Shown here in pieces: positions 6,258 to 64,000 of a DNA stretch of 64,000 nt. The notes beneath the pieces are model-generated. The model was not told the DNA's origin, did no database searches, and saw nothing but the letters and a program-made list of their open reading frames with translations. Made by a program: the position numbers and the translations under genes. Within the stretch, counting starts at the first letter, position 1. Every line of letters starts with the position of its first letter. This DNA comes from Candidatus Bathyarchaeota archaeon (GTDB taxonomy: Archaea; Thermoproteota; Bathyarchaeia; Bathyarchaeales; Bathycorpusculaceae): positions 96,001-160,000 of the forward strand of contig CAWGYA010000007.1 of the NCBI GenBank assembly GCA_963826715.1. Direction: 5' to 3'.

Positions 6258-7553
6258 GTGCAAAACTGCAGGAATGAGGAGTGGGAGGGAATGGTTGGAT
6301 ATTCAAGCGGGGTTAAGTCTCCTAATGTTTTTAGCGCCTTCTCCAGTTCTTCCGCTTGTGGATCCACGCTTCAAGAAAGCATCCCCCTAAACCCACCTTG
6401 CCCTCAATGTAACTCAAAACGGCTATGGCGAGACTCCAAACGTTACACAGCCGCTGGAGACGAAATACAAAGATGGCTCTGCAGGGAGTGCGGCTTAAGA
6501 TTTTCCGATCCAAATGACATCAAAAAAGCCGGCACGGCAGTTGCAACAGTTGAAAGAATTGAAACGAAGACATTAAAAAGCGCAAACAACAACTTCTCTA
6601 CAACCCAAATCTGCGTAAAGGAGACGAAAAATTTGGATGCAGAACAACAGACCACTGGAGTTCTGCGGAGCAACCAAGCAGACATCAAAGGCAAAATCGT
6701 TGAACACGCTTTCTGGATGCAAAAAGAAGGATACGCCGAAGCAACAATCTCACGCCGCATACGCTTTCTAAAAACAATGATGAACAAAGGAGCCAACTTA
6801 GCAGACCCCGAATCACTAAAAGAAATGCTAGCCCGACAACAAAACTGGCAAGCAAAAACCAAAAAAATAGCAGTCGAAACCTATAGCCTCTTCCTAAAAA
6901 TGCAAGGCTTAACCTGGAACCCACCAAAATTCAAAAGCGTCAAAAAACTGCCATTTATCCCAACAGAGCAAGAAATCAACAGCCTAATCGCAGGCAGCAA
7001 CAGAAAAACAGCAACCTTCCTACAACTACTCAAAGAAACAGGCATGCGATGTGGAGAAGCCTTCCTACTCAAATGGACCGACTTCAACTTCGAAAACAGA
7101 AGCGTCGACATAACACCAGAAAAAGGCAGCGAACCAAGACAACTACCAATCTCAAATCAGCTAATAGCAATGCTAAACAGCCTACCAAAAGACCAAGAAA
7201 AGCCCTACGGATGCAGCGAGCGACATTTCGCAAGAGCCTTCCGCCTACAAAGAAGCCGAATAGCCTTTAATCTCAAAAACGACCGCTTAAAAAAAATCCA
7301 CTTCCACACCCTACGCCACTGGAAAGCCACCACTGAGTACGCTAAAACCAAAGATATCTTACACGTAATGAAGCTACTCGGCCACAGAAACATCCAAAAC
7401 ACCCTACTGTACACTCAGCTCATCACTTTCAAAAACGACGAATTCCACAGCGCAACCGCCAAAACCGTTGAAGACGCACAAAAGCTCGTTGAGGCAGGAT
7501 TCGAATATGTATGTGACTTTGGAGACGTAAAACTATTCAGGAAGCGAAAGTAA
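6258..7553 (+). CDS. Tyrosine recombinase/integrase with N-terminal Zn ribbon
   Basis: CPQC...CREC; TGMRCGE, HFHTLRH, LLGHRN, TLLY catalytic residues; ends 50 bp before the att core. Confidence 0.92.
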   Translation: MQNCRNEEWEGMVGYSSGVKSPNVFSAFSSSSACGSTLQESIPLNPPCPQCNSKRLWRDSKRYTAAGDEIQRWLCRECGLRFSDPNDIKKAGTAVATVERIETKTLKSANNNFSTTQICVKETKNLDAEQQTTGVLRSNQADIKGKIVEHAFWMQKEGYAEATISRRIRFLKTMMNKGANLADPESLKEMLARQQNWQAKTKKIAVETYSLFLKMQGLTWNPPKFKSVKKLPFIPTEQEINSLIAGSNRKTATFLQLLKETGMRCGEAFLLKWTDFNFENRSVDITPEKGSEPRQLPISNQLIAMLNSLPKDQEKPYGCSERHFARAFRLQRSRIAFNLKNDRLKKIHFHTLRHWKATTEYAKTKDILHVMKLLGHRNIQNTLLYTQLITFKNDEFHSATAKTVEDAQKLVEAGFEYVCDFGDVKLFRKRK

Positions 7554-10945: not shown

Positions 10946-11228
10946 GAAAGTTAGCTATCCTTTTAGTATCAGACACTAATTTCTTTAGCGTCCCTGTTTT
11001 ATAAAAGACTTCTTGTATACATCTCTTGAATAGCCCGGTCAAATTTTCTTGACAAAAAGAGATTCCTTTGAGTTGTCACACTGCGGCGGGTCGCCACATA
11101 GTGTATCCTACCCTGTTTTGGAGTATCGCGGGCTTTCAAAGAACCAGATAGAATTGGGTGCCACAGGCAGTTAGATCCGGGTTTAGCATAACTCTCTACG
11201 TTACCTTGCTGAAAGCTTAACGGACCTT

Positions 11229-57632: not shown

Positions 57633-58583
57633 TTGGCTGTAACATCTGTTACCTCTTCATGTAAGTCTTGTAACACCAGTTACAACAGTTACGGATCCTA
57701 CGGTTACAGCGTAGAAGCCCAAGTACTCCATGCGATCGAAGATTCGGAAATTGAGCTTACGCCAGCAGAGATTGCACGAAAAATCCATGCACCAAACAAA
57801 CCAACCAAGGGGCAATACACAACTGTCCGAGTATTCTGCCGACGCTTACTCGAAAAGGGGCAAATGCGTCAGCCTTATCCTGGAGCTTACTGTAGCAAAA
57901 TCACCCACGGGGTGCGGTTTGAACCTCTCTCAGTTCACAACATTACTCTTCGCAGTTTTGTTTGCCAAGACGTTAAGCATTGGGAGAAGGATGAGGTTGT
58001 TGGGGGTGTAAAGATTCATGTTTGTTTTGGGTCGGAAAGGCGAAAGGTCACTGGATATATTGCTTGTGACGTTGGCGGTATGAGCCACGACGCTTGCCTT
58101 TTGGCTTTAAATCGCTGGTTTGACCTAGTCAACAGTCGTTTGGGCTTTCAGCTTAACGATTTGGAAATTTTAACGTTTGAGTGCAACAGGGATCACCAAG
58201 GCGTACGTCTCGACGGTGTTCAATGCATAACAAGAACCGACCTTTGCGGAATGATCGATCGCATCTACCAAAAAGAGGCGTCTTTGGTGCGTGCAGAATG
58301 CAAGGTCCTTAGTCCTATGAGTGTTAACAAGTTTACACAGACCCTTGCCAGCGGCTTTGCAGACTTCAAGAACGCTCAACACATCTCTGAGTTAAAACAG
58401 GGTGTAAACAGCAATACTGAAGCAATAAAGTTTGCAAACAGTCGGCTTCTGCAGATTGAGCGTCAAAATGAGGCAATGGTGGGCGCAATAATTAGGCTTA
58501 CAGAAACTCTAACCAAACCCAACCAAACGGAAGATCCATCGGGTATTAGGGTGCCGAAGAATTTTGAGGGTTATGTTAGGTGA
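57633..58583 (+). CDS. wHTH-containing protein, candidate replication initiator with 5' iteron-like repeats
   Basis: LTPAEIARKI...TVRVFCRRLLEKG; GTAAC/GTTAC repeats 57639-57707. Confidence 0.5.
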   Translation: MAVTSVTSSCKSCNTSYNSYGSYGYSVEAQVLHAIEDSEIELTPAEIARKIHAPNKPTKGQYTTVRVFCRRLLEKGQMRQPYPGAYCSKITHGVRFEPLSVHNITLRSFVCQDVKHWEKDEVVGGVKIHVCFGSERRKVTGYIACDVGGMSHDACLLALNRWFDLVNSRLGFQLNDLEILTFECNRDHQGVRLDGVQCITRTDLCGMIDRIYQKEASLVRAECKVLSPMSVNKFTQTLASGFADFKNAQHISELKQGVNSNTEAIKFANSRLLQIERQNEAMVGAIIRLTETLTKPNQTEDPSGIRVPKNFEGYVR

Positions 58584-59169
58584 CAGTTATGGAGAAATGG
58601 ATATGGAAGAGAGAAAAACAAGTTTGAAAGTTCCGGATGCTTACAGGAGCCTCCTCGAAGACATCCGCAACCTGAAAAGTGATGAAACAAACCCCAACCG
58701 AATGACCAACAAACAGAAAGCCGAGGTCTGGAAGAGCCTCAAAAAGCATGGTTGGATATACCCAATAGTAACCGATCTGCAAGGCATCTTTGGTGATGGC
58801 GAGCAACGAGTGCAAGTATGCCTAGAACATGAAGAATTCAACGCTCCCGTGCTTCGTCTTCAATTATCTGACGTTCAACGCAGGCTTCTAAGACAGACTC
58901 TAAACAAGCTTAGGGGAAAGCATAACCGAGAGCTTGATGAAGCCGATTACAAGCGCATAATTGAGGCTGGCGAGAAAGAAGATTTACAGGCGCTGTTGAC
59001 GGCGATTGGAGAGAAAATTCCCGAAGATCTAGGCGGACCTCAGGAGGGCTCTATGTTGATTCCTGAAAGTTACGAGCTGGTCATTGAGTGCAAAGATGAA
59101 ACTGACCAGAAAGCCAAATTTGACCAATTAACCGCGGCAGGATATGCTGTTAGGGTGCTGAATCTCTAA
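58564..59169 (+). CDS. ParB/Srx-like protein
   Basis: NPNRM...SLKKHGWIYPIV...DGEQRV...LNKLRG; YELVIEC.DE..Q tail. Confidence 0.8.
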   Translation: MRVMLGDSYGEMDMEERKTSLKVPDAYRSLLEDIRNLKSDETNPNRMTNKQKAEVWKSLKKHGWIYPIVTDLQGIFGDGEQRVQVCLEHEEFNAPVLRLQLSDVQRRLLRQTLNKLRGKHNRELDEADYKRIIEAGEKEDLQALLTAIGEKIPEDLGGPQEGSMLIPESYELVIECKDETDQKAKFDQLTAAGYAVRVLNL

Positions 59170-59852
59170 TGGAATTCGATTTTTATAACACCTGGAGGGA
59201 GCCTGACAGTTTCCGAGCGCAGAGCGTCGTAGGAAGCTTCACCCTAAATGATGTTAAGCTGCAGAAGCACTTCAAGGGATCTCTACCCATAGAAGATGAT
59301 GATTGGCAGGTAGGCATAATTGTTGGCCCCAGCGGATCGGGCAAGAGCAGCATCGCAAAAAGACTCTTCCCCAACGAGTACATCACAAGTTTCCAGTACC
59401 AGGGCAAATGCATCCTCGACGACTTTCCGGCTGAGCTTAGCACATCAGAGATTACCCGTATGCTCTGCAGCGTCGGATTTGCTTCTCCACCGGATTGGCT
59501 AAAGGCTTACAGTTGTCTTAGCCAGGGCGAGAAAATGCGAGTTGACGTCGCAAGGGCATTATGCCTGCCTCAGAAATGCATTGTCTTCGACGAATTTACC
59601 AGCGTCGTGGACCGAGAAGTTGCTAAAATCGGATCCTACGCCATCAGCAAAGCCGTCCGAGTCCAAAGCGGAAAACAATTCATAGCGGTCACCTGCCACT
59701 TCGACGTCATAGACTGGCTAGAAGTCGATTGGGTCTTCAACACCGATACAATGGAGTTTGACCGAAAAAAAGAAGTCGGCCGCCCGTTGAGCTCAAAGTT
59801 TACCGGTGCGGCAATTCCATGTGGAAGAGCTTTCGGCAATATCACTATTTGA
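59169..59852 (+). CDS. ABC-type ATPase (N-part of frameshifted ABC-GNAT)
   Basis: GPSGSGKS, LSQGEKMR, FDEFTSVVDR, VTCH. Confidence 0.85.
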   Translation: MEFDFYNTWREPDSFRAQSVVGSFTLNDVKLQKHFKGSLPIEDDDWQVGIIVGPSGSGKSSIAKRLFPNEYITSFQYQGKCILDDFPAELSTSEITRMLCSVGFASPPDWLKAYSCLSQGEKMRVDVARALCLPQKCIVFDEFTSVVDREVAKIGSYAISKAVRVQSGKQFIAVTCHFDVIDWLEVDWVFNTDTMEFDRKKEVGRPLSSKFTGAAIPCGRAFGNITI

Positions 59853-60253
59853 ATGGTAAGCTCGGTGCCGGAGTGCGATGCTACGTTGCTGTCTACAACG
59901 AGAAACCTGTTGGTTTTGTTGCTGTTGTGCATACAAGGATGAAAGCCAATTACTTCCGGGTGAGTCGCCTGGTGGTTCTGCCCGATTACCAAGGAATAGG
60001 CTTAGGCAAACGGCTACTCAACTTCATCGCTGAACTCTACACTTCCCAAATCAACCTACCCTTCTATTTGGTTACTTCAAATCCTCAGCTTGTCCGAGGC
60101 AACTTGGGGAACTGGCGTGTGAAGCGTGTTGGGCATGGCACAGCTGGAAGCGAAGACACTAGAATAAACTCAGAACTCACCAAGAGCAACAGCAAACGAC
60201 GCCTAAGCGTAACCCTACAGTATATGCCTAAGCTGAAATCTGGAGGTTCTTAG
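59765..60253 (+). CDS. GNAT (Mom-like) domain reached by -1 frameshift at the A7 run
   Basis: KRSRPPVELKVYRCGNSMWKSFRQYHYL...SRLVVLPDYQGIGLG. Confidence 0.75.
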   Translation, partial: KKRSRPPVELKVYRCGNSMWKSFRQYHYLNGKLGAGVRCYVAVYNEKPVGFVAVVHTRMKANYFRVSRLVVLPDYQGIGLGKRLLNFIAELYTSQINLPFYLVTSNPQLVRGNLGNWRVKRVGHGTAGSEDTRINSELTKSNSKRRLSVTLQYMPKLKSGGS

Positions 60254-60408
60254 TGCCAAAATACTGCAAAGGCAAATGCGGCCGAAAAATCTCCTACCAA
60301 AACAAAACCGGCTATTGCAAAGAATGCTTTGGCCGTTTCATTCTTAGCCCTAAGGGTGCTAATGCAAGCAGGAGAGATACATCAAAACTAAAATCAACCA
60401 AAAGGTAG
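60253..60408 (+). CDS. 51-aa Zn-finger microprotein (not in ORF track)
   Basis: YCKGKC...YCKEC; GTG overlaps the GNAT stop, GGAGG upstream. Confidence 0.5.
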   Translation: MPKYCKGKCGRKISYQNKTGYCKECFGRFILSPKGANASRRDTSKLKSTKR

Positions 60409-60927
60409 AAACACAAAACTACTATGTAGTAATTCGCCATTTAACATTAATTTAAACTCAGCACTATGACCTGCAACCTTATTCATTACGTCAAGACCAG
60501 TCAGAATGCTCGCTTGTATAGTCTTTGATTCACCAGAACGAATGATACCTATAGGTTCATTCCAAGCGCTATAGTTTTCGCTTGAAACTCCAGTAATGTT
60601 CACACTTAAAAGCAAACCCTCTATATCATTGATGCCCTCGTTATGAATAGTGACGTTGATTAAGCAATCCATAGTCATTCCTGCTGGATTCCGCCAAGTG
60701 TTCCCAGATGAGAGAGAGACAATTTTTGCGATATTAATCATCGGGGTAGGAGTTGGGGAAGGAGTAGGCGTTGGGGTTGGACTAAGAGTTGGAGAAGAAG
60801 TGGGAGTGCTATTTGAAGGTGAAGGAGTGAATATTTGAATATTCTGCGTAAAATACCAAGCAGAAAATGTTATTCCCACTATAGCGATAAGAACAATGCC
60901 GTAAACAGTTTTTCTATCTATTATCAC
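60394..60927 (-). CDS. Membrane-anchored PT-linker + Ig-like (CARDB-like) surface protein
   Basis: TM, SPTPTPTP, INVTIHNEG...IRSGESKTI. Confidence 0.7.
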   Translation of the reverse strand: MIIDRKTVYGIVLIAIVGITFSAWYFTQNIQIFTPSPSNSTPTSSPTLSPTPTPTPSPTPTPMINIAKIVSLSSGNTWRNPAGMTMDCLINVTIHNEGINDIEGLLLSVNITGVSSENYSAWNEPIGIIRSGESKTIQASILTGLDVMNKVAGHSAEFKLMLNGELLHSSFVFLPFG

Positions 60928-61040
60928 TTATTTCAGCTTCCAAGTTTTCTATTTTAAGCAGTTAATTTGTCAGCTTAAGAGCTTTTTTGTCCACATTCCT
61001 ATACTAACCTTTGTCAACGTTTCTTGACCAAAACAAAGAG

Positions 61041-61074
61041 AGGGTGGATAGTCTAGTCGTGAGAAAAAGGTCTT
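61041..61074 (+). repeat. Intergenic motif copy 1
   Basis: AGGGTGGATAGTCTAGTCGTGAGAAAAAGGTCTT. Confidence 0.65.
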
Positions 61075-61114
61075 AATTGTCTCTATGAAGGGGTCAGTTT
61101 TGTTTCTTTGTTCC

Positions 61115-61366
61115 TTATCGTTTCATAATGAAAAATACATTGACTACTATAGTGAAGATAAAAATAAACAACGGATAATTGGGTAATGGCTCAATTAATG
61201 TTGGTGGATATTTAATTGAACTTTGAAAACTAACATCTATGAAAATACCTACATTACCTACAATCGTGTCTTTTAATAAAAAAAGGAGTTGCTCAATAGA
61301 CAGAAATAGAAACAAATCCATTATAACGTTAAACATGAGGATGATTGCTGTAAATCTTTTTGTCAT
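61115..61366 (-). CDS. Small 2-TM membrane protein
   Basis: 83 aa hydrophobic. Confidence 0.55.
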   Translation of the reverse strand: MTKRFTAIILMFNVIMDLFLFLSIEQLLFLLKDTIVGNVGIFIDVSFQSSIKYPPTLIEPLPNYPLFIFIFTIVVNVFFIMKR

Positions 61367-61438
61367 AGATAAACACCAATCGAATGTGATTCAATAAGTT
61401 CAGATTTGTTTTGACCTTGCTTAAAGATTTTACAATAA

Positions 61439-61657
61439 CTAAGAAGGGGTCTGTTTTGTTTCAGTTATTTTCATTTTTTGAATGATTATTGCGATAGTAA
61501 TTAAGACTACTCCGATAACCAAAAAAGCCACATTCAAATCCGATGCTAAATTCCAGCGGTGAGGGTAAAAGATGAAATTAAAAATTGAAAATACAAATAA
61601 AATAGTTCCAATGACCGATAGAAGACTAACGCTCATTCTTTTGGTTTGTTTGTCCAT
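61439..61657 (-). CDS. Small 2-TM membrane protein
   Basis: 72 aa hydrophobic. Confidence 0.6.
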   Translation of the reverse strand: MDKQTKRMSVSLLSVIGTILFVFSIFNFIFYPHRWNLASDLNVAFLVIGVVLITIAIIIQKMKITETKQTPS

Positions 61658-61720
61658 TTTTACTTAATCCTCAATCAAGTGTTAATTTGTTTTGACCTTG
61701 CTTAAAAGATTTAGCGTTAT

Positions 61721-61750
61721 AGGCAAGGTACATCCAAGCGTGGGAAAAAT
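61721..61750 (+). repeat. Intergenic motif copy 2
   Basis: AGGCAAGGTACATCCAAGCGTGGGAAAAAT. Confidence 0.5.
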
Positions 61751-61825
61751 GTACTTATTAGGCTGTAACAAGTCTTAATACTATTAGTTGTGAAGCCAAT
61801 ATTTAATCAAAGATGAAACCTTCCT

Positions 61826-62095
61826 ATGTCAACAAAAAGATTATTTCATTTTGTGTCAATACTTACTTTGGCAGTTTTTGCAATATTAGTAGGTCTGTTT
61901 CTTTTCAAATTAAGGTTCTTTGGTGATTCAGACATCTGGTGGTATGGTGCTCTTTTCCAAGTTGAACATTACAGTAACTCAGATGTATGGCTTTATGGTG
62001 CAGTAACAGGTTTTTTTGCATGGCTATTCTTAGGACTACTTATTGCAACGGCTTTTCTATTTTACAAACTCAGTATGGAGAAAAGGCTGCAATAA
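61826..62095 (+). CDS. Small 2-TM membrane protein with internal SD(I/V)W(W/L)YGA repeat
   Basis: 89 aa. Confidence 0.55.
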   Translation: MSTKRLFHFVSILTLAVFAILVGLFLFKLRFFGDSDIWWYGALFQVEHYSNSDVWLYGAVTGFFAWLFLGLLIATAFLFYKLSMEKRLQ

Positions 62096-62138
62096 GAGAG
62101 TTTGAAACATTGAAGTTAACCCTTGTCGTTACTTAGGC

Positions 62139-62172
62139 AGGGTGGGGTAGTCTATTGGTGGGAAAAGGTCTT
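62139..62172 (+). repeat. Intergenic motif copy 3
   Basis: AGGGTGGGGTAGTCTATTGGTGGGAAAAGGTCTT. Confidence 0.65.
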
Positions 62173-62269
62173 GAAATTTTGATAAGTCCAGAAAACTGGA
62201 CTGATTATTATTTACCGTTTAAGGCTGGTCTACAAAATAGGGATTAAATACGTTAATAGATATTTATGA

Positions 62270-63148
62270 TTGCAAGGAAGAACCAACATGGAAGACCTGA
62301 ATCGGATAGAACAAGACAAGCAAAGGGCAGAAGTATTTGACGCACTAGGTCATCCGACACGGATACTTATTCTTAAAGTCTTAAATGACGGTTCACTTGG
62401 GTTTGCAGAGTTAAAGAAGAAGACAGCTATTGAGAGTAGCGGACATCTGCAACATCATTTAACAAAACTCAATGGGTTGATAAAGACTGATGAATACGGC
62501 AAGTACTGCTTATCAGAACAAGGTAAAGATGCCTTACTAACCGTTCAAACAGTAGAGAATGCGTCACCCAAAAAAGAGGCAAAAGAGCAGGGAAAAAAAC
62601 ACTTAAAGGTGGGTTTAAAACCAGTTGTTGTCCTACTTACCGTTCTGTTAATTACAAGTTCGGCAATTGCAATATATGAATACAACCAAACGCTAATTCT
62701 AGAGAAGGGCAGTCTTTCTCCACAAATCCTTACTTCCTACAGTAGCGTAAACAATGGTTTGCAATTATCTATAACTCTTCACTTAGGCAAGACCCAATAT
62801 AAAATAGGTGAAGTAGTACCCATAACCTTCACCATTAATAATGTAAGCAACCAAACACTAACCTTCACTAACGTAAATGGCAACGCAAATTTCAACTTCC
62901 AAGTATACAATGGCAATAACAAAGAAGTTTACTCTTGGGTGCTTGGGGCTTATCCACTAACTAATGCATCTATACCTTTGAATCCAAACGGAAGCTATGC
63001 ACAAACGCTTAACTGGAATTCTGAAGTAAACCTATCAGGATTTTCACAGGCAAAGGCAGGAGTATACTATATAATAGGTGAAATTGGTGAAAACCAGCCA
63101 TACCAATTCCAAACAACACCACTTGCGATAACAATTGCTACCTCATAA
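62270..63148 (+). CDS. ArsR-like wHTH - TM - extracellular Ig-like (BsuPI-like) one-component regulator
   Basis: FDALGHPTRILIL...SSGHLQHHL; TM; YKIGEVVPITFTINN. Confidence 0.8.
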   Translation: MQGRTNMEDLNRIEQDKQRAEVFDALGHPTRILILKVLNDGSLGFAELKKKTAIESSGHLQHHLTKLNGLIKTDEYGKYCLSEQGKDALLTVQTVENASPKKEAKEQGKKHLKVGLKPVVVLLTVLLITSSAIAIYEYNQTLILEKGSLSPQILTSYSSVNNGLQLSITLHLGKTQYKIGEVVPITFTINNVSNQTLTFTNVNGNANFNFQVYNGNNKEVYSWVLGAYPLTNASIPLNPNGSYAQTLNWNSEVNLSGFSQAKAGVYYIIGEIGENQPYQFQTTPLAITIATS

Positions 63149-63200
63149 TGCTTATCCGACAATTTGTTTCTTAACAAGCGTTCTTTATCTACAATTACAG

Positions 63201-63232
63201 ATGGTGGATACACCCAACTGTGGGAAAAGGTC
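63201..63232 (+). repeat. Intergenic motif copy 4
   Basis: ATGGTGGATACACCCAACTGTGGGAAAAGGTC. Confidence 0.6.
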
Positions 63233-63259
63233 AATGTTTATCTCAGCAGGTTTTTCTTC

Positions 63260-63772
63260 TTAAGGATTTGTAACTGTTAGGCTGAAGGTGTCTCCGCTTT
63301 TGTTTGTCAACTGACTATTTCCAAAAGCAATGACCATTGTGTAATCACCTATTGGGATATCTTTTGCCAATTCAACTGTCAAAATTGAAGAGTTAGTTTG
63401 CATAGAGGCAATATTGATGGAATTGGGATTAAATGTGTAATTGAAAGTTTTTTCTTGTGGCGAAATATCATAATAGGTCCAATTTGAAAACCTCAAAGTA
63501 AGATTCTCAAAAGGTATGGATATTTCTGTTTCAAGAAAAGATTTTAAGGTAACATTTACTTGAAAAGTTGCGCCTTGGGCAACATTTGGATGAAACGGAG
63601 AAACATCTGATGTAATCATTTGTTCGGGTTTAAAAGGAATCAGCCCAATTGGTCTATTTAACCAGTAATACCCACCAATTAAAAGAGAAGCGAATAAAAT
63701 AGCAATTAATGCTCCTATAGCTAATTTGCTATTCAAGCTTATCCCTATAATCCATGGTATTTCAAGTCGCAT
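63260..63772 (-). CDS. Membrane-anchored Ig-like surface protein
   Basis: TM then VAQGATFQVNVTL...SILTVEL...PIGDYT. Confidence 0.65.
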   Translation of the reverse strand: MRLEIPWIIGISLNSKLAIGALIAILFASLLIGGYYWLNRPIGLIPFKPEQMITSDVSPFHPNVAQGATFQVNVTLKSFLETEISIPFENLTLRFSNWTYYDISPQEKTFNYTFNPNSINIASMQTNSSILTVELAKDIPIGDYTMVIAFGNSQLTNKSGDTFSLTVTNP

Positions 63773-63820
63773 TTAAGTCTAGGCTTTAGAACAGTCTCTA
63801 TCTTCAGCTATACTTGCTTA

Positions 63821-63848
63821 AGATAGGTACAATATCGCTGGAAAGGTC
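63821..63848 (+). repeat. Intergenic motif copy 5 (degenerate)
   Basis: AGATAGGTACAATATCGCTGGAAAGGTC. Confidence 0.35.
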
Positions 63849-64000
63849 ATTGAGCTGGTTTTGTGGTTTTTTGATGCCTTCTAAAAAGCAAAACAGAAAT
63901 GGCAATAATCACAATTATAGCCAATATAACGCCAACAGGTAATAAGTAATCTATCGGTTCAGAATGTGGTGGATTTTTTGGTGGGAGATATTCACTGTCT
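63847..64000 (-). CDS. 3' end of a surface protein with C-terminal TM anchor (truncated by window)
   Basis: ...PIDYLLPVGVILAIIVIIAISVLLFRRHQKTTKPAQ*. Confidence 0.55.
   Translation of the reverse strand, partial: DSEYLPPKNPPHSEPIDYLLPVGVILAIIVIIAISVLLFRRHQKTTKPAQ

Follow-up and report, generated by a model that had tools for sequence, protein, structure and literature searches.

We analysed a window of 64,000 nt from a Bathyarchaeia genome (Candidatus Bathyarchaeota archaeon, assembly GCA_963826715.1, contig CAWGYA010000007.1; G000:C7:96001-160000), near the right end of which an array of genes for small secreted or membrane-anchored proteins begins. These genes are interspersed with copies of a conserved motif of about 34 nt, the subject of this report. 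Genomes are designated by G-numbers, loci by L-numbers, and contigs of the source genome G000 (2.64 Mb, 41% G+C, 8 contigs) by C-numbers. Inspection of the sequence and its open reading frames (ORFs) located five copies of the motif at 61038-63854, all on the + strand and each between genes (Table 1). This is as the original prediction had it, and a covariance model found the same five copies. The element TAACC.TTGTC said to be shared upstream of copies 1 and 3 is also present. The sixth copy proposed for 11094-11114 was not upheld: this site has the left half GGGTAGGATACAC only, without GGGAAAAGGTC, and gave no match to the model at E<=10.

Table 1. Features of the motif array and its left border (window coordinates; bits are covariance-model scores unless nhmmer is named)
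Feature	Position	Strand	Description
Zn-ribbon ORF	60253..60408	+	last gene of the conserved provirus backbone; variable cargo starts here
g1	60394..60927	-	177 aa; N-terminal membrane helix, Pro/Thr-rich linker, outer domain; no Pfam family
palindrome GTCAACGTTTCTTGAC	61013..61028		between motif copy 1 and g1; promoter-region class P2, recurring in relatives
motif copy 1	61038..61078	+	GGGTGGATAGTCTAGTCGTGAGAAAAAGGTC; 25.0 bits (cmsearch), 14.0 bits (nhmmer)
g2	61083..61366	-	frameshifted paralogue of g3; ORF 61115-61366; relic tail ..ETKLTPS ending at 61083
g3	61439..61657	-	72 aa; two membrane helices; tail ..ETKQTPS
P1-type promoter block TTTGTTTTGACCTTGCTTAAAAGATTT	61685..61716	-	promoter block of g3; second copy at 61400-61431 ahead of g2
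motif copy 2	61717..61759	+	GAAAAATGTAC, right end degenerate; 27.3 bits
g4	61826..62095	+	89-aa membrane protein, no Pfam family; direction opposite to most units
motif copy 3	62136..62176	+	100-120 nt upstream of g5, same direction as g5; 28.6 bits
palindrome GTCCAGAAAACTGGAC	62186..62201		perfect 16-nt palindrome upstream of g5
g5	62270..63148	+	membrane-anchored winged-helix protein; N-terminal DUF7347, one membrane helix, BsuPI-like outer domain
motif copy 4	63199..63239	+	between convergent g5 and g6; 32.8 bits
g6	63260..63772	-	170 aa; N-terminal membrane helix; unit consists of motif copy 4, g6 and motif copy 5
motif copy 5	63820..63854	+	degenerate; 16.3 bits, 11.3 bits (nhmmer)
g7	63847..64000 (3' part)	-	full gene to window-equivalent 64605, 252 aa

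The core of ~34 nt was obtained by aligning the five window copies with two copies from contig C5. Re-alignment of 125 matches, comprising 118 distinct copies, gave the consensus AGAGGGTGGGTACACCC, 4-5 variable nt, GTGGGAAAAGGTC; two conserved arms, GGGTGGGTACACCC and GTGGGAAAAGGTC, thus flank a variable 4-5-nt centre. The AAAA columns are kept in 116-118 of the 118 distinct copies. A 13-nt core, GTGRGAAAARGTC, was not enriched when searched at 2 mismatches (6 found vs 6.6 expected in shuffles), and therefore only the full motif is significant. Since the sequence-only covariance model was trained on the five window copies and the two C5 copies, the search of the window with it is circular, which applies to the scores in Table 1 and to the distance from the runner-up match in the 64-kb window (5.7 bits, filters off). 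Independent support for the motif comes from a whole-genome nhmmer search, from other genomes of the genus and from metagenome loci. In the complete 2.64-Mb genome, the nhmmer core profile matched at three places only: C7, with the five copies at C7:157041-159848; C5, with two + strand copies at C5:153744 and C5:154152; and C8, with one weak match at C8:480129. A variant of the motif, GGGGGTATACCCTCTCTCATAGGAAAAGGTAGTTAG, was seen beside fragments of a broken integrase gene at G000:C8:479826-480154 (L003:5826-6154) and G000:C6:110837.

Position of the motif relative to genes

The orientation of the motif was examined for 67 copies scoring at least 11 bits in 22 loci, with a gene caller based on codon usage. 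On the GGGTGG side, 54 of 66 copies face an opposite-strand gene, whose start is 45-130 nt away. On the GGTC side, 44 of 67 copies do so, with the stop of the gene within 20 nt in 27 of these 44; the motif's GGTCA often supplies the complement of the TGA stop. A strict test, independent of gene calls, asked for an opposite-strand coding ORF of at least 40 codons ending -8 to 30 nt from the GGTC end. Such an ORF was present for 32 of the 67 copies vs 6 of 67 in the mirrored test and 181 of 3000 random positions; metagenome contigs gave 18/30 vs 2/30 mirrored. This test superseded a looser one, in which 49% of random positions scored. About 10 of the remaining copies retain, as read by eye, a relic gene tail next to the motif. 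The tails are of two types: D1, a membrane anchor followed by C-terminal RRHRKTANLKQ, and D2, ending in ETKQTPS.

Window copies 1, 4, and 5 follow this rule, abutting the relic tail of g2, g6, and g7, respectively. The distance between copy 1 and the opposite-strand relic stop of g2 is 10 nt, the GGTC end of copy 4 is 28 nt from the g6 stop, and the GGTCA end of copy 5 overlaps the TGA stop of g7. Copy 2 is an orphan without an abutting opposite-strand gene end; it has the P1-type promoter block of g3 on its left and g4, on the + strand, next to it. The original prediction had taken the motif to be indifferent to gene direction. Within the window, flanking genes do occur in both directions, but across the genus the motif is antiparallel to the genes and abuts their stops.

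Read on the gene strand, the motif starts (TGA)CCUUUUCCCAC and begins CCUUUU. An invariant T4 lies 2-8 nt from the stop-abutting end, so the motif carries the U-tract sequence of a terminator, i.e. at least four U soon after the stop. Genome-wide, CCTTTT and TTTTTT are enriched 3.7-fold and 5-fold, respectively, within 50 nt past 1,466 stops. Two of the three D1-tail genes of G000 located outside arrays retain just CCTTTTCTCA (TGACCTTTTCTCA) after the stop. In Methanococcus maripaludis, U4 tracts are reported as the terminator signal, recognised by aCPSF1 (PMC8716108). Because of this precedent, the CCTTTT enrichment after stops and the half-motifs of the D1-tail genes, the proximal part of the motif is a plausible terminator of the upstream gene, as judged from the sequence. 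The remaining ~25 conserved bases are not accounted for by termination.

Each gene of the arrays possesses its own upstream region, and at least four promoter/operator classes occur behind the same motif, at varying distance. The products of nearly all genes flanking motifs in the genus have a signal peptide or membrane helix at the N terminus and/or an anchor at the C terminus. Pfam domains, where any, are Kelch, PQQ, NosD/beta-helix, BNR, and Ig-like. In the window, g1 is the last unit of the array and has no motif after its stop. The stop of g3 also lacks a motif, and the promoter block of g2 abuts it directly; the D2 tail type of g2 recurs beside motifs in relatives. The g7 product carries a signal peptide and, at its C terminus, a membrane anchor with the D1-type tail FRRHQKTTKPAQ.

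Two further features of these surface-protein genes were observed. A C-terminal module, composed of a membrane helix and RRHRKT(A/S)NLKQ, is common to otherwise unrelated surface proteins, such as g7 (window 63847-63900) and those with L040-type tails, and may be a sorting or anchoring signal. A promoter class with paired boxes GTTCCA-N4-6-TGGAAC and TGTTCCATGAATAGAAC is located upstream of several surface-protein genes (L049:16868, L050:13763, L060:7976); these boxes may be the operator of another regulator.

The g5 product resembles a one-component transmembrane regulator, and g5 seems to have an operator of its own. Its DNA-binding domain was matched to PF24038 (E 8e-11), while the BsuPI match is weak. 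The palindrome GTCCAGAAAACTGGAC is kept upstream of g5-type genes in L056 and L044 and is likely the operator of g5's own promoter. Genes of the g5 type are usually inverted relative to their neighbours and have the motif upstream, and the arrangement of motif, palindrome, and g5-type gene is kept in L044, L056, L032, and L237.

Distribution and genomic settings

Of 60 other genomes of this Bathyarchaeia genus, 24 were found to carry the motif with the sequence-only covariance model. The number of copies per genome ranges from 0 to 14, and they form, nearly always, same-strand clusters with a spacing of 0.4-3 kb. A search at E<=1e-4 that covered 110 genomes from 54 other genera of the order, together with 10 more genomes of the genus itself, returned no copy. 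The exact 20-base pattern was present in 27 stretches among 185,579 species genomes, labelled as Bathyarchaeia or Bathyarchaeota (18), 'Crenarchaeota archaeon' (2), 'uncultured archaeon' (3), Methanocella (1), and bacteria (3). It was also present in 30 stretches in Joint Genome Institute metagenomes, and the motif recurs in 28 of these 30 loci. The scan of the contig and related genomes that had been proposed together with the motif thus shows a sequence confined to islands, integrative elements or proviruses and not spread genome-wide.

The window array, which extends from 60394 to about 64758, is cargo within a provirus. It is bordered on the left by a ParB-like gene, a phrog_11143 ATPase/acetyltransferase and the Zn-ribbon ORF, and on the right by small genes and a large terminase. 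Both sides of the array slot are collinear with a sister provirus at C7:64.3-88 kb, to which the homology stops at 60394. The slot of the sister provirus holds two Lrp-like genes and a gene for an 867-aa surface protein, without the motif and with a T9 terminator. In contigs from soil and wetland, depth is 30-120 on the array flanks vs 2-8 on the array.

The two related head-tailed proviruses occupy 58564-60408 of the window plus G000:C7:160759-176000, and G000:C7:64300-88300, of one contig. They are 79-91% identical in blocks and differ in their terminase regions, and both have one hypervariable slot for surface-protein genes, with different content. The phrog_11143 profile (357 positions) is spanned by two ORFs with an overlap of ~30 nt, 59169-59852 (ATPase part) and 59819-60253 (acetyltransferase part). 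This overlap was also seen in related viral contigs and may reflect two genes or a programmed frameshift.

Only one of 80 related IMG/VR viral contigs contains the motif. A link between this virus and the motif was rejected, as the close terminase relatives were found in five genomes (G010, G017, G041, G062, and G069), all of them motif-free. The array of G014 lies behind a tRNA-Gln gene and an integrase gene, that of G076 lies beside a tRNA fragment among housekeeping genes, and further arrays are located in plain chromosomal settings. The fragment in G076 is a partial tRNA-like 3' segment (L045:10640-10710) adjoining the last motif of the array; a full tRNA-Leu gene is located 1.2 kb away (L045:11925-12010), and the two may represent an old attachment-site duplication. 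A conserved non-coding block of ~200 nt, which ends in one or two tandem motif copies just 35 nt apart, was seen at three loci (L061:11950-12330, L044:4690-4930, and L051:19700-19940). One of these is inside a tRNA-linked integrase element, and the block had no Rfam match at E<=1.

Exchange of units at the motif

Loose matches between arrays have many alignment ends at motif edges. In order to exclude mere conservation, the junction set was restricted to matches of at least 92% identity between different contigs with ends inside both loci. After de-duplication from 48 rows, this set contained 23 distinct interior ends. Of these, 7 are located in the 34-nt motif itself and another 3 no more than 40 nt from it, the motif being only a few percent of the length of the compared loci. 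The expected coincidence of gene-content breakpoints with the motif was thereby borne out.

The 692-nt block of copy 4, g6, and copy 5 recurs at 92.8% identity in L210 and L067, next to unrelated left neighbours. Copy 4 forms the left end of this block; its right arm is identical to that in L210/L067, against 5 differences in the 20 positions of its left arm and centre. A motif-gene-motif unit of 566-591 nt is 95-96% identical between G176 and G175/G177. It is located to the left of a shared, 90%-identical gene in G177 and to the right of that gene in G176.

In six junctions, including both ends of the latter unit as well as L048/L220, L059/L076, and L083/L234, the arm beside the shared flank is kept and the other arm differs along with its flank. 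Crossovers are placed inside the motif because, in these recent exchanges, each arm keeps to the neighbour on its own side. Accordingly, the left-arm variant GGCA is tied to the left-flank class P1 (8/10 vs 21/108, p=2e-4), whereas no link to the right-flank classes was seen (p=0.45 and 0.56). A table of independence between left and right flank classes is weak, most copies being assigned to 'other' by the regular expressions that define the classes.

Short Logan contigs were compared with the array at a likeness of at least 90%, and only the stretches that they cover were interpreted. In one soil-metagenome contig the end of g4 is followed by motif copy 4, with g5 missing; another contig connects motif copy 4 with a D1 tail and lacks g6. 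Each is a single contig of low depth. The circles joined at the motif that a cassette system would be expected to release were not seen among these short contigs. Back-joints 7725->7439 and 8171->7439 were considered as circles and rejected, since they look like paralogous motif-tail junctions from other loci. The joint 10845->6323 is consistent with a differing gene order in related viruses.

Mechanism, rival explanations and known systems

The search for structure was negative. The window had 0 Rfam matches at gathering score, the stretch 60300-64000 had 0 even at E<=1, and 0 tRNAs were found; the tRNA-like look of copies 1 and 3 was not borne out. RNAalifold predicted 0 pairs and hence no consensus fold. 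The 5-bp stem GGGTG/CACCC pairs in 75.6% of cells vs 75.3% in shuffles and shows no covariation. Pairing of CCCA/TGGG round the variable centre is found in 80.7% vs 75.3% in shuffles (0/500 reach it); this signal, largely due to one subfamily (A:T in 10 copies), may stem from relatedness. RNA folds of the copies are no stabler than shuffled sequences (z -1.11 to +1.04). DNA folds of 121-nt windows, computed for five copies and both strands, gave z -1.85 to +1.64 with the motif mostly unpaired, in agreement with the earlier statement that the copies are not attC-like hairpins. As none of the fold tests revealed a structure, the motif is regarded as acting as a linear sequence. Its left half is a near-palindrome, which is not enriched in the genome by itself. 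A CRISPR repeat was rejected because a simple k-mer spacing scan of G000 found no CRISPR-like array; an origin recognition box-like element, a G-quadruplex, and a selenocysteine insertion sequence were dropped on inspection.

No recombinase was found among 117 + 44 neighbouring proteins, except for the tRNA-linked integrase of the G014 element. Matches to PF00589 (Phage_integrase) in five genomes are mostly tens of kb from the arrays, the nearest being at 5 kb (G014) and 15 kb (G012). The Zn-ribbon tyrosine recombinase at window 6258-7553, named in the original prediction as a candidate enzyme, was rejected: it is located 53 kb away, and its family occurs in 51 of 60 genomes regardless of the motif. 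G000 has 18 PF00589 matches vs 3-8 in four relatives; 12 of the 18 belong to the family of this integrase. An intI gene or attI site at the array end was not found in the PF00589 and neighbour-protein scans, which did not include the IntI-specific domain.

We lean towards the view that the motif combines two roles, being a post-stop terminator and a crossover junction for units of surface genes. The arrays are head-to-tail series of genes for small secreted or membrane-anchored proteins, each with its own promoter, joined by a directional motif. The motif starts right behind the stop on the gene strand, often overlapping it, and is followed by the promoter of the next gene. The location, direction, distribution and junctions of the motif are observed, whereas termination is deduced from its sequence. 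Its CCUUUU start would probably terminate the transcript of the upstream gene. Units of promoter, gene, and motif would be gained, lost, and moved via recombination between motif copies, and the arrays ride as cargo of chromosomal islands, integrative elements and, in the window, a provirus. The idea of shuffled cassettes thus survives on the junction evidence: the breakpoints in and at the motif delimit shuffled units. The integron- or pdif-like mechanism originally attached to it does not, given that there is no hairpin, no inverted arms and no adjacent recombinase. Since the defining tests for attC and pdif sites failed and no enzyme was found, we file the motif as terminator-like and as a crossover junction. 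A recombinase acting in trans and recombination over short homology (RadA-type) have roughly even odds. The layout of two arms and a variable centre, with switches at the centre, fits a site-specific enzyme and homologous recombination equally well, because a switch can be placed only between discriminating differences.

Several observations weigh against this combined role. With regard to termination, the T4 tract is short, runs of T>=5 directly beyond the motif are not commoner than elsewhere (16% vs 24% genome-wide), and window copies 2 and 3 as well as the g5-type units have no gene end alongside. With regard to recombination, most arrays have no recombinase in or beside them, and none of the families tested tracks the motif. 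In contrast to the simple recombination sites known so far, the motif has arms that are not inverted repeats and no supported hairpin. The two outer junctions of the window array have no motif, and in one contig the sequence upstream of g6 passes directly into that upstream of g5, without an intervening motif. An 'empty' single site was looked for and not found: in 29 other genomes the locus orthologous to the G076 array is without the motif within 1.5 kb. All sequences are assemblies, and several junction events come from the kin genomes G175-G177. Finally, the motif is the only sequence common to otherwise unrelated units, and for this reason alignments tend to end at it and homologous recombination would use it, regardless of what the motif primarily does.

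One alternative is that the motif is only a 3' terminator or 3' untranslated-region module inherited with the gene family, the junctions being an effect of alignment and conservation. This would explain why it abuts stops in a fixed direction relative to genes, why its core is CCUUUU in a genome with CCTTTT enriched past stops, why half-motifs occur behind D1-tail genes outside arrays, and why no recombinase is nearby. We nevertheless hold it to be unlikely. Conservation of 34 bases is more than a plain U-tract terminator requires, and other genes of the genome do without this sequence. In the comparisons at high identity, the far arm diverges much more than the shared block, so that breaks occur inside the motif and not merely beside it; one whole unit has changed place; and the g5-type units carry the motif upstream, not downstream. 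Less probable still is an operator for the membrane-anchored winged-helix regulators of the g5 type (DUF7347), through which neighbouring surface-protein genes would be co-regulated. The near-palindromic left half would suit an operator, the g5-type genes are the only recurrent DNA-binding genes within 5 kb of the copies (11 members in 7 of 14 genomes, plus L237), and five of them have the motif about 100-160 nt upstream. However, the distance from motif to TATA-like box is not fixed: it varies between about 10 and about 80 nt in the four promoter classes. Several g5-type genes lack the motif, the palindromic half is at background frequency, and a separate palindrome lies nearer the g5 start. 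The presence of DUF7347 is uninformative: of 60 genomes, 59 have the family, and motif-free genomes are among them.

The motif could also be the dedicated site at which a new cassette system recombines site-specifically, with integron-like logic, a linear hairpin-less site and a recombinase encoded elsewhere. We regard this possibility as doubtful, although less so than the two preceding ones. Two conserved arms round a variable 4-5-nt centre, crossovers at this centre in six junctions, linkage to the adjacent flank only, and co-oriented, patchy arrays on mobile elements all speak for such a site, as does the weak co-variation of the inner bases CCCA/TGGG. Against it stand the want of a candidate enzyme, the direct orientation of the arms, the motif-free outer ends of the window array, the missing empty site at the orthologous locus, and the fact that no circular or excised forms were seen among short contigs. 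Moreover, homologous recombination within either arm predicts the same pattern of junctions. The outcomes that had been named in advance as counter-evidence to a shuffling motif, i.e. a genome-wide spacing typical of a transcription factor site, a frequency of the full motif equal to that in shuffled DNA, and breakpoints not coinciding with the motif, were not observed.

Archaeal integrons and clusters of attC sites lacking integrases (CALINs), with hairpin attC sites, were described by Ghaly et al. 2022 (PMC9668308). Judged by the main text of that article, the motif arrays share their layout with archaeal integron arrays: short genes in tandem and mostly in one direction, a repeated site interspersed directly behind each gene, a unit order that varies between genomes, and an integrase that is often not nearby. 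Varied order and context of cassettes with boundaries at the site, as expected of an integron, were found. The differences lie in the site and the cargo, since the motif is a conserved linear sequence without a single-strand hairpin, each unit has its own promoter, the cargo consists almost wholly of secreted or membrane proteins, and neither IntI nor attI was found. It is therefore very improbable that the arrays are true attC arrays or arrays of Xer-dependent pdif/dif modules. The imperfect hairpin of 55-140 nt that marks attC was absent on either strand of the 121-nt windows, there was no consensus fold, the one small stem showed no covariation, and neither intI nor attI stood beside the arrays; the sites are all direct, without 11-nt inverted arms and a 6-nt spacer. 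The invariant UUUU a few bases from the stop, with C before it, resembles the archaeal U4 terminators that depend on aCPSF1/FttA (PMC8716108). Unlike these, the motif has thirty further conserved bases, for which no role in termination is known, and is limited to a few islands in under half of the genomes of one genus.

Three other systems bear comparison. The pdif modules of Acinetobacter plasmids are Xer-dependent and have 28-nt sites with inverted 11-nt arms, a 6-nt spacer and alternating orientation. Like the units described here, they are small gene modules bounded by copies of a short site in varied contexts, with the recombinase encoded elsewhere; in the motif, by contrast, the arms are by eye not reverse complements, and all copies of an array are on one strand. 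Repetitive extragenic palindromic (REP) and bacterial interspersed mosaic (BIME) elements are palindromic hairpins after stops in hundreds of copies genome-wide. They are similar in being short post-stop repeats able to act as terminators and recombination points, whereas the motif is unstructured and is found in 0-14 copies per genome, in arrays only. ArnR of Sulfolobus and ToxR of Vibrio are membrane-bound one-component regulators of surface structures. The g5 product resembles them in its cytoplasmic DNA-binding domain, single membrane helix, outer domain and location among surface-protein genes, and differs in the family of its DNA-binding domain, the ArsR-like DUF7347.

In titles and abstracts on integrons and attC sites in Bathyarchaeia, on surface proteins of Bathyarchaeia proviruses, and on archaeal integrons, no such motif is described. 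The word 'repeat' occurs 0 times in PMC11697101, supplements aside, and the string 'Bathyarch' occurs 0 times in the main text of PMC9668308, its supplementary integron lists aside. We would put forward only tentatively that these arrays represent a previously undescribed cassette system, with a 34-nt linear, hairpin-less site that has a 4-5-nt crossover centre and is also the terminator of each gene, and with an enzyme encoded elsewhere. With the same reserve, such a system would move single promoter-bearing surface-protein genes among islands, integrative elements, and head-tailed viruses.

Bathyarchaeia are abundant uncultured archaea of soils and sediments, and their cell surfaces and viruses are little known. 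The motif is a genus-wide signature marking variable surface-protein genes and shows at base resolution where these genes exchange, including their exchange into a provirus. If a dedicated enzyme acts on it, archaea would possess a second, mechanistically different cassette system besides integrons, with a 34-nt handle. If there is no dedicated enzyme, the arrays would be a clear natural case of a terminator-bearing repeat driving modular gene shuffling.

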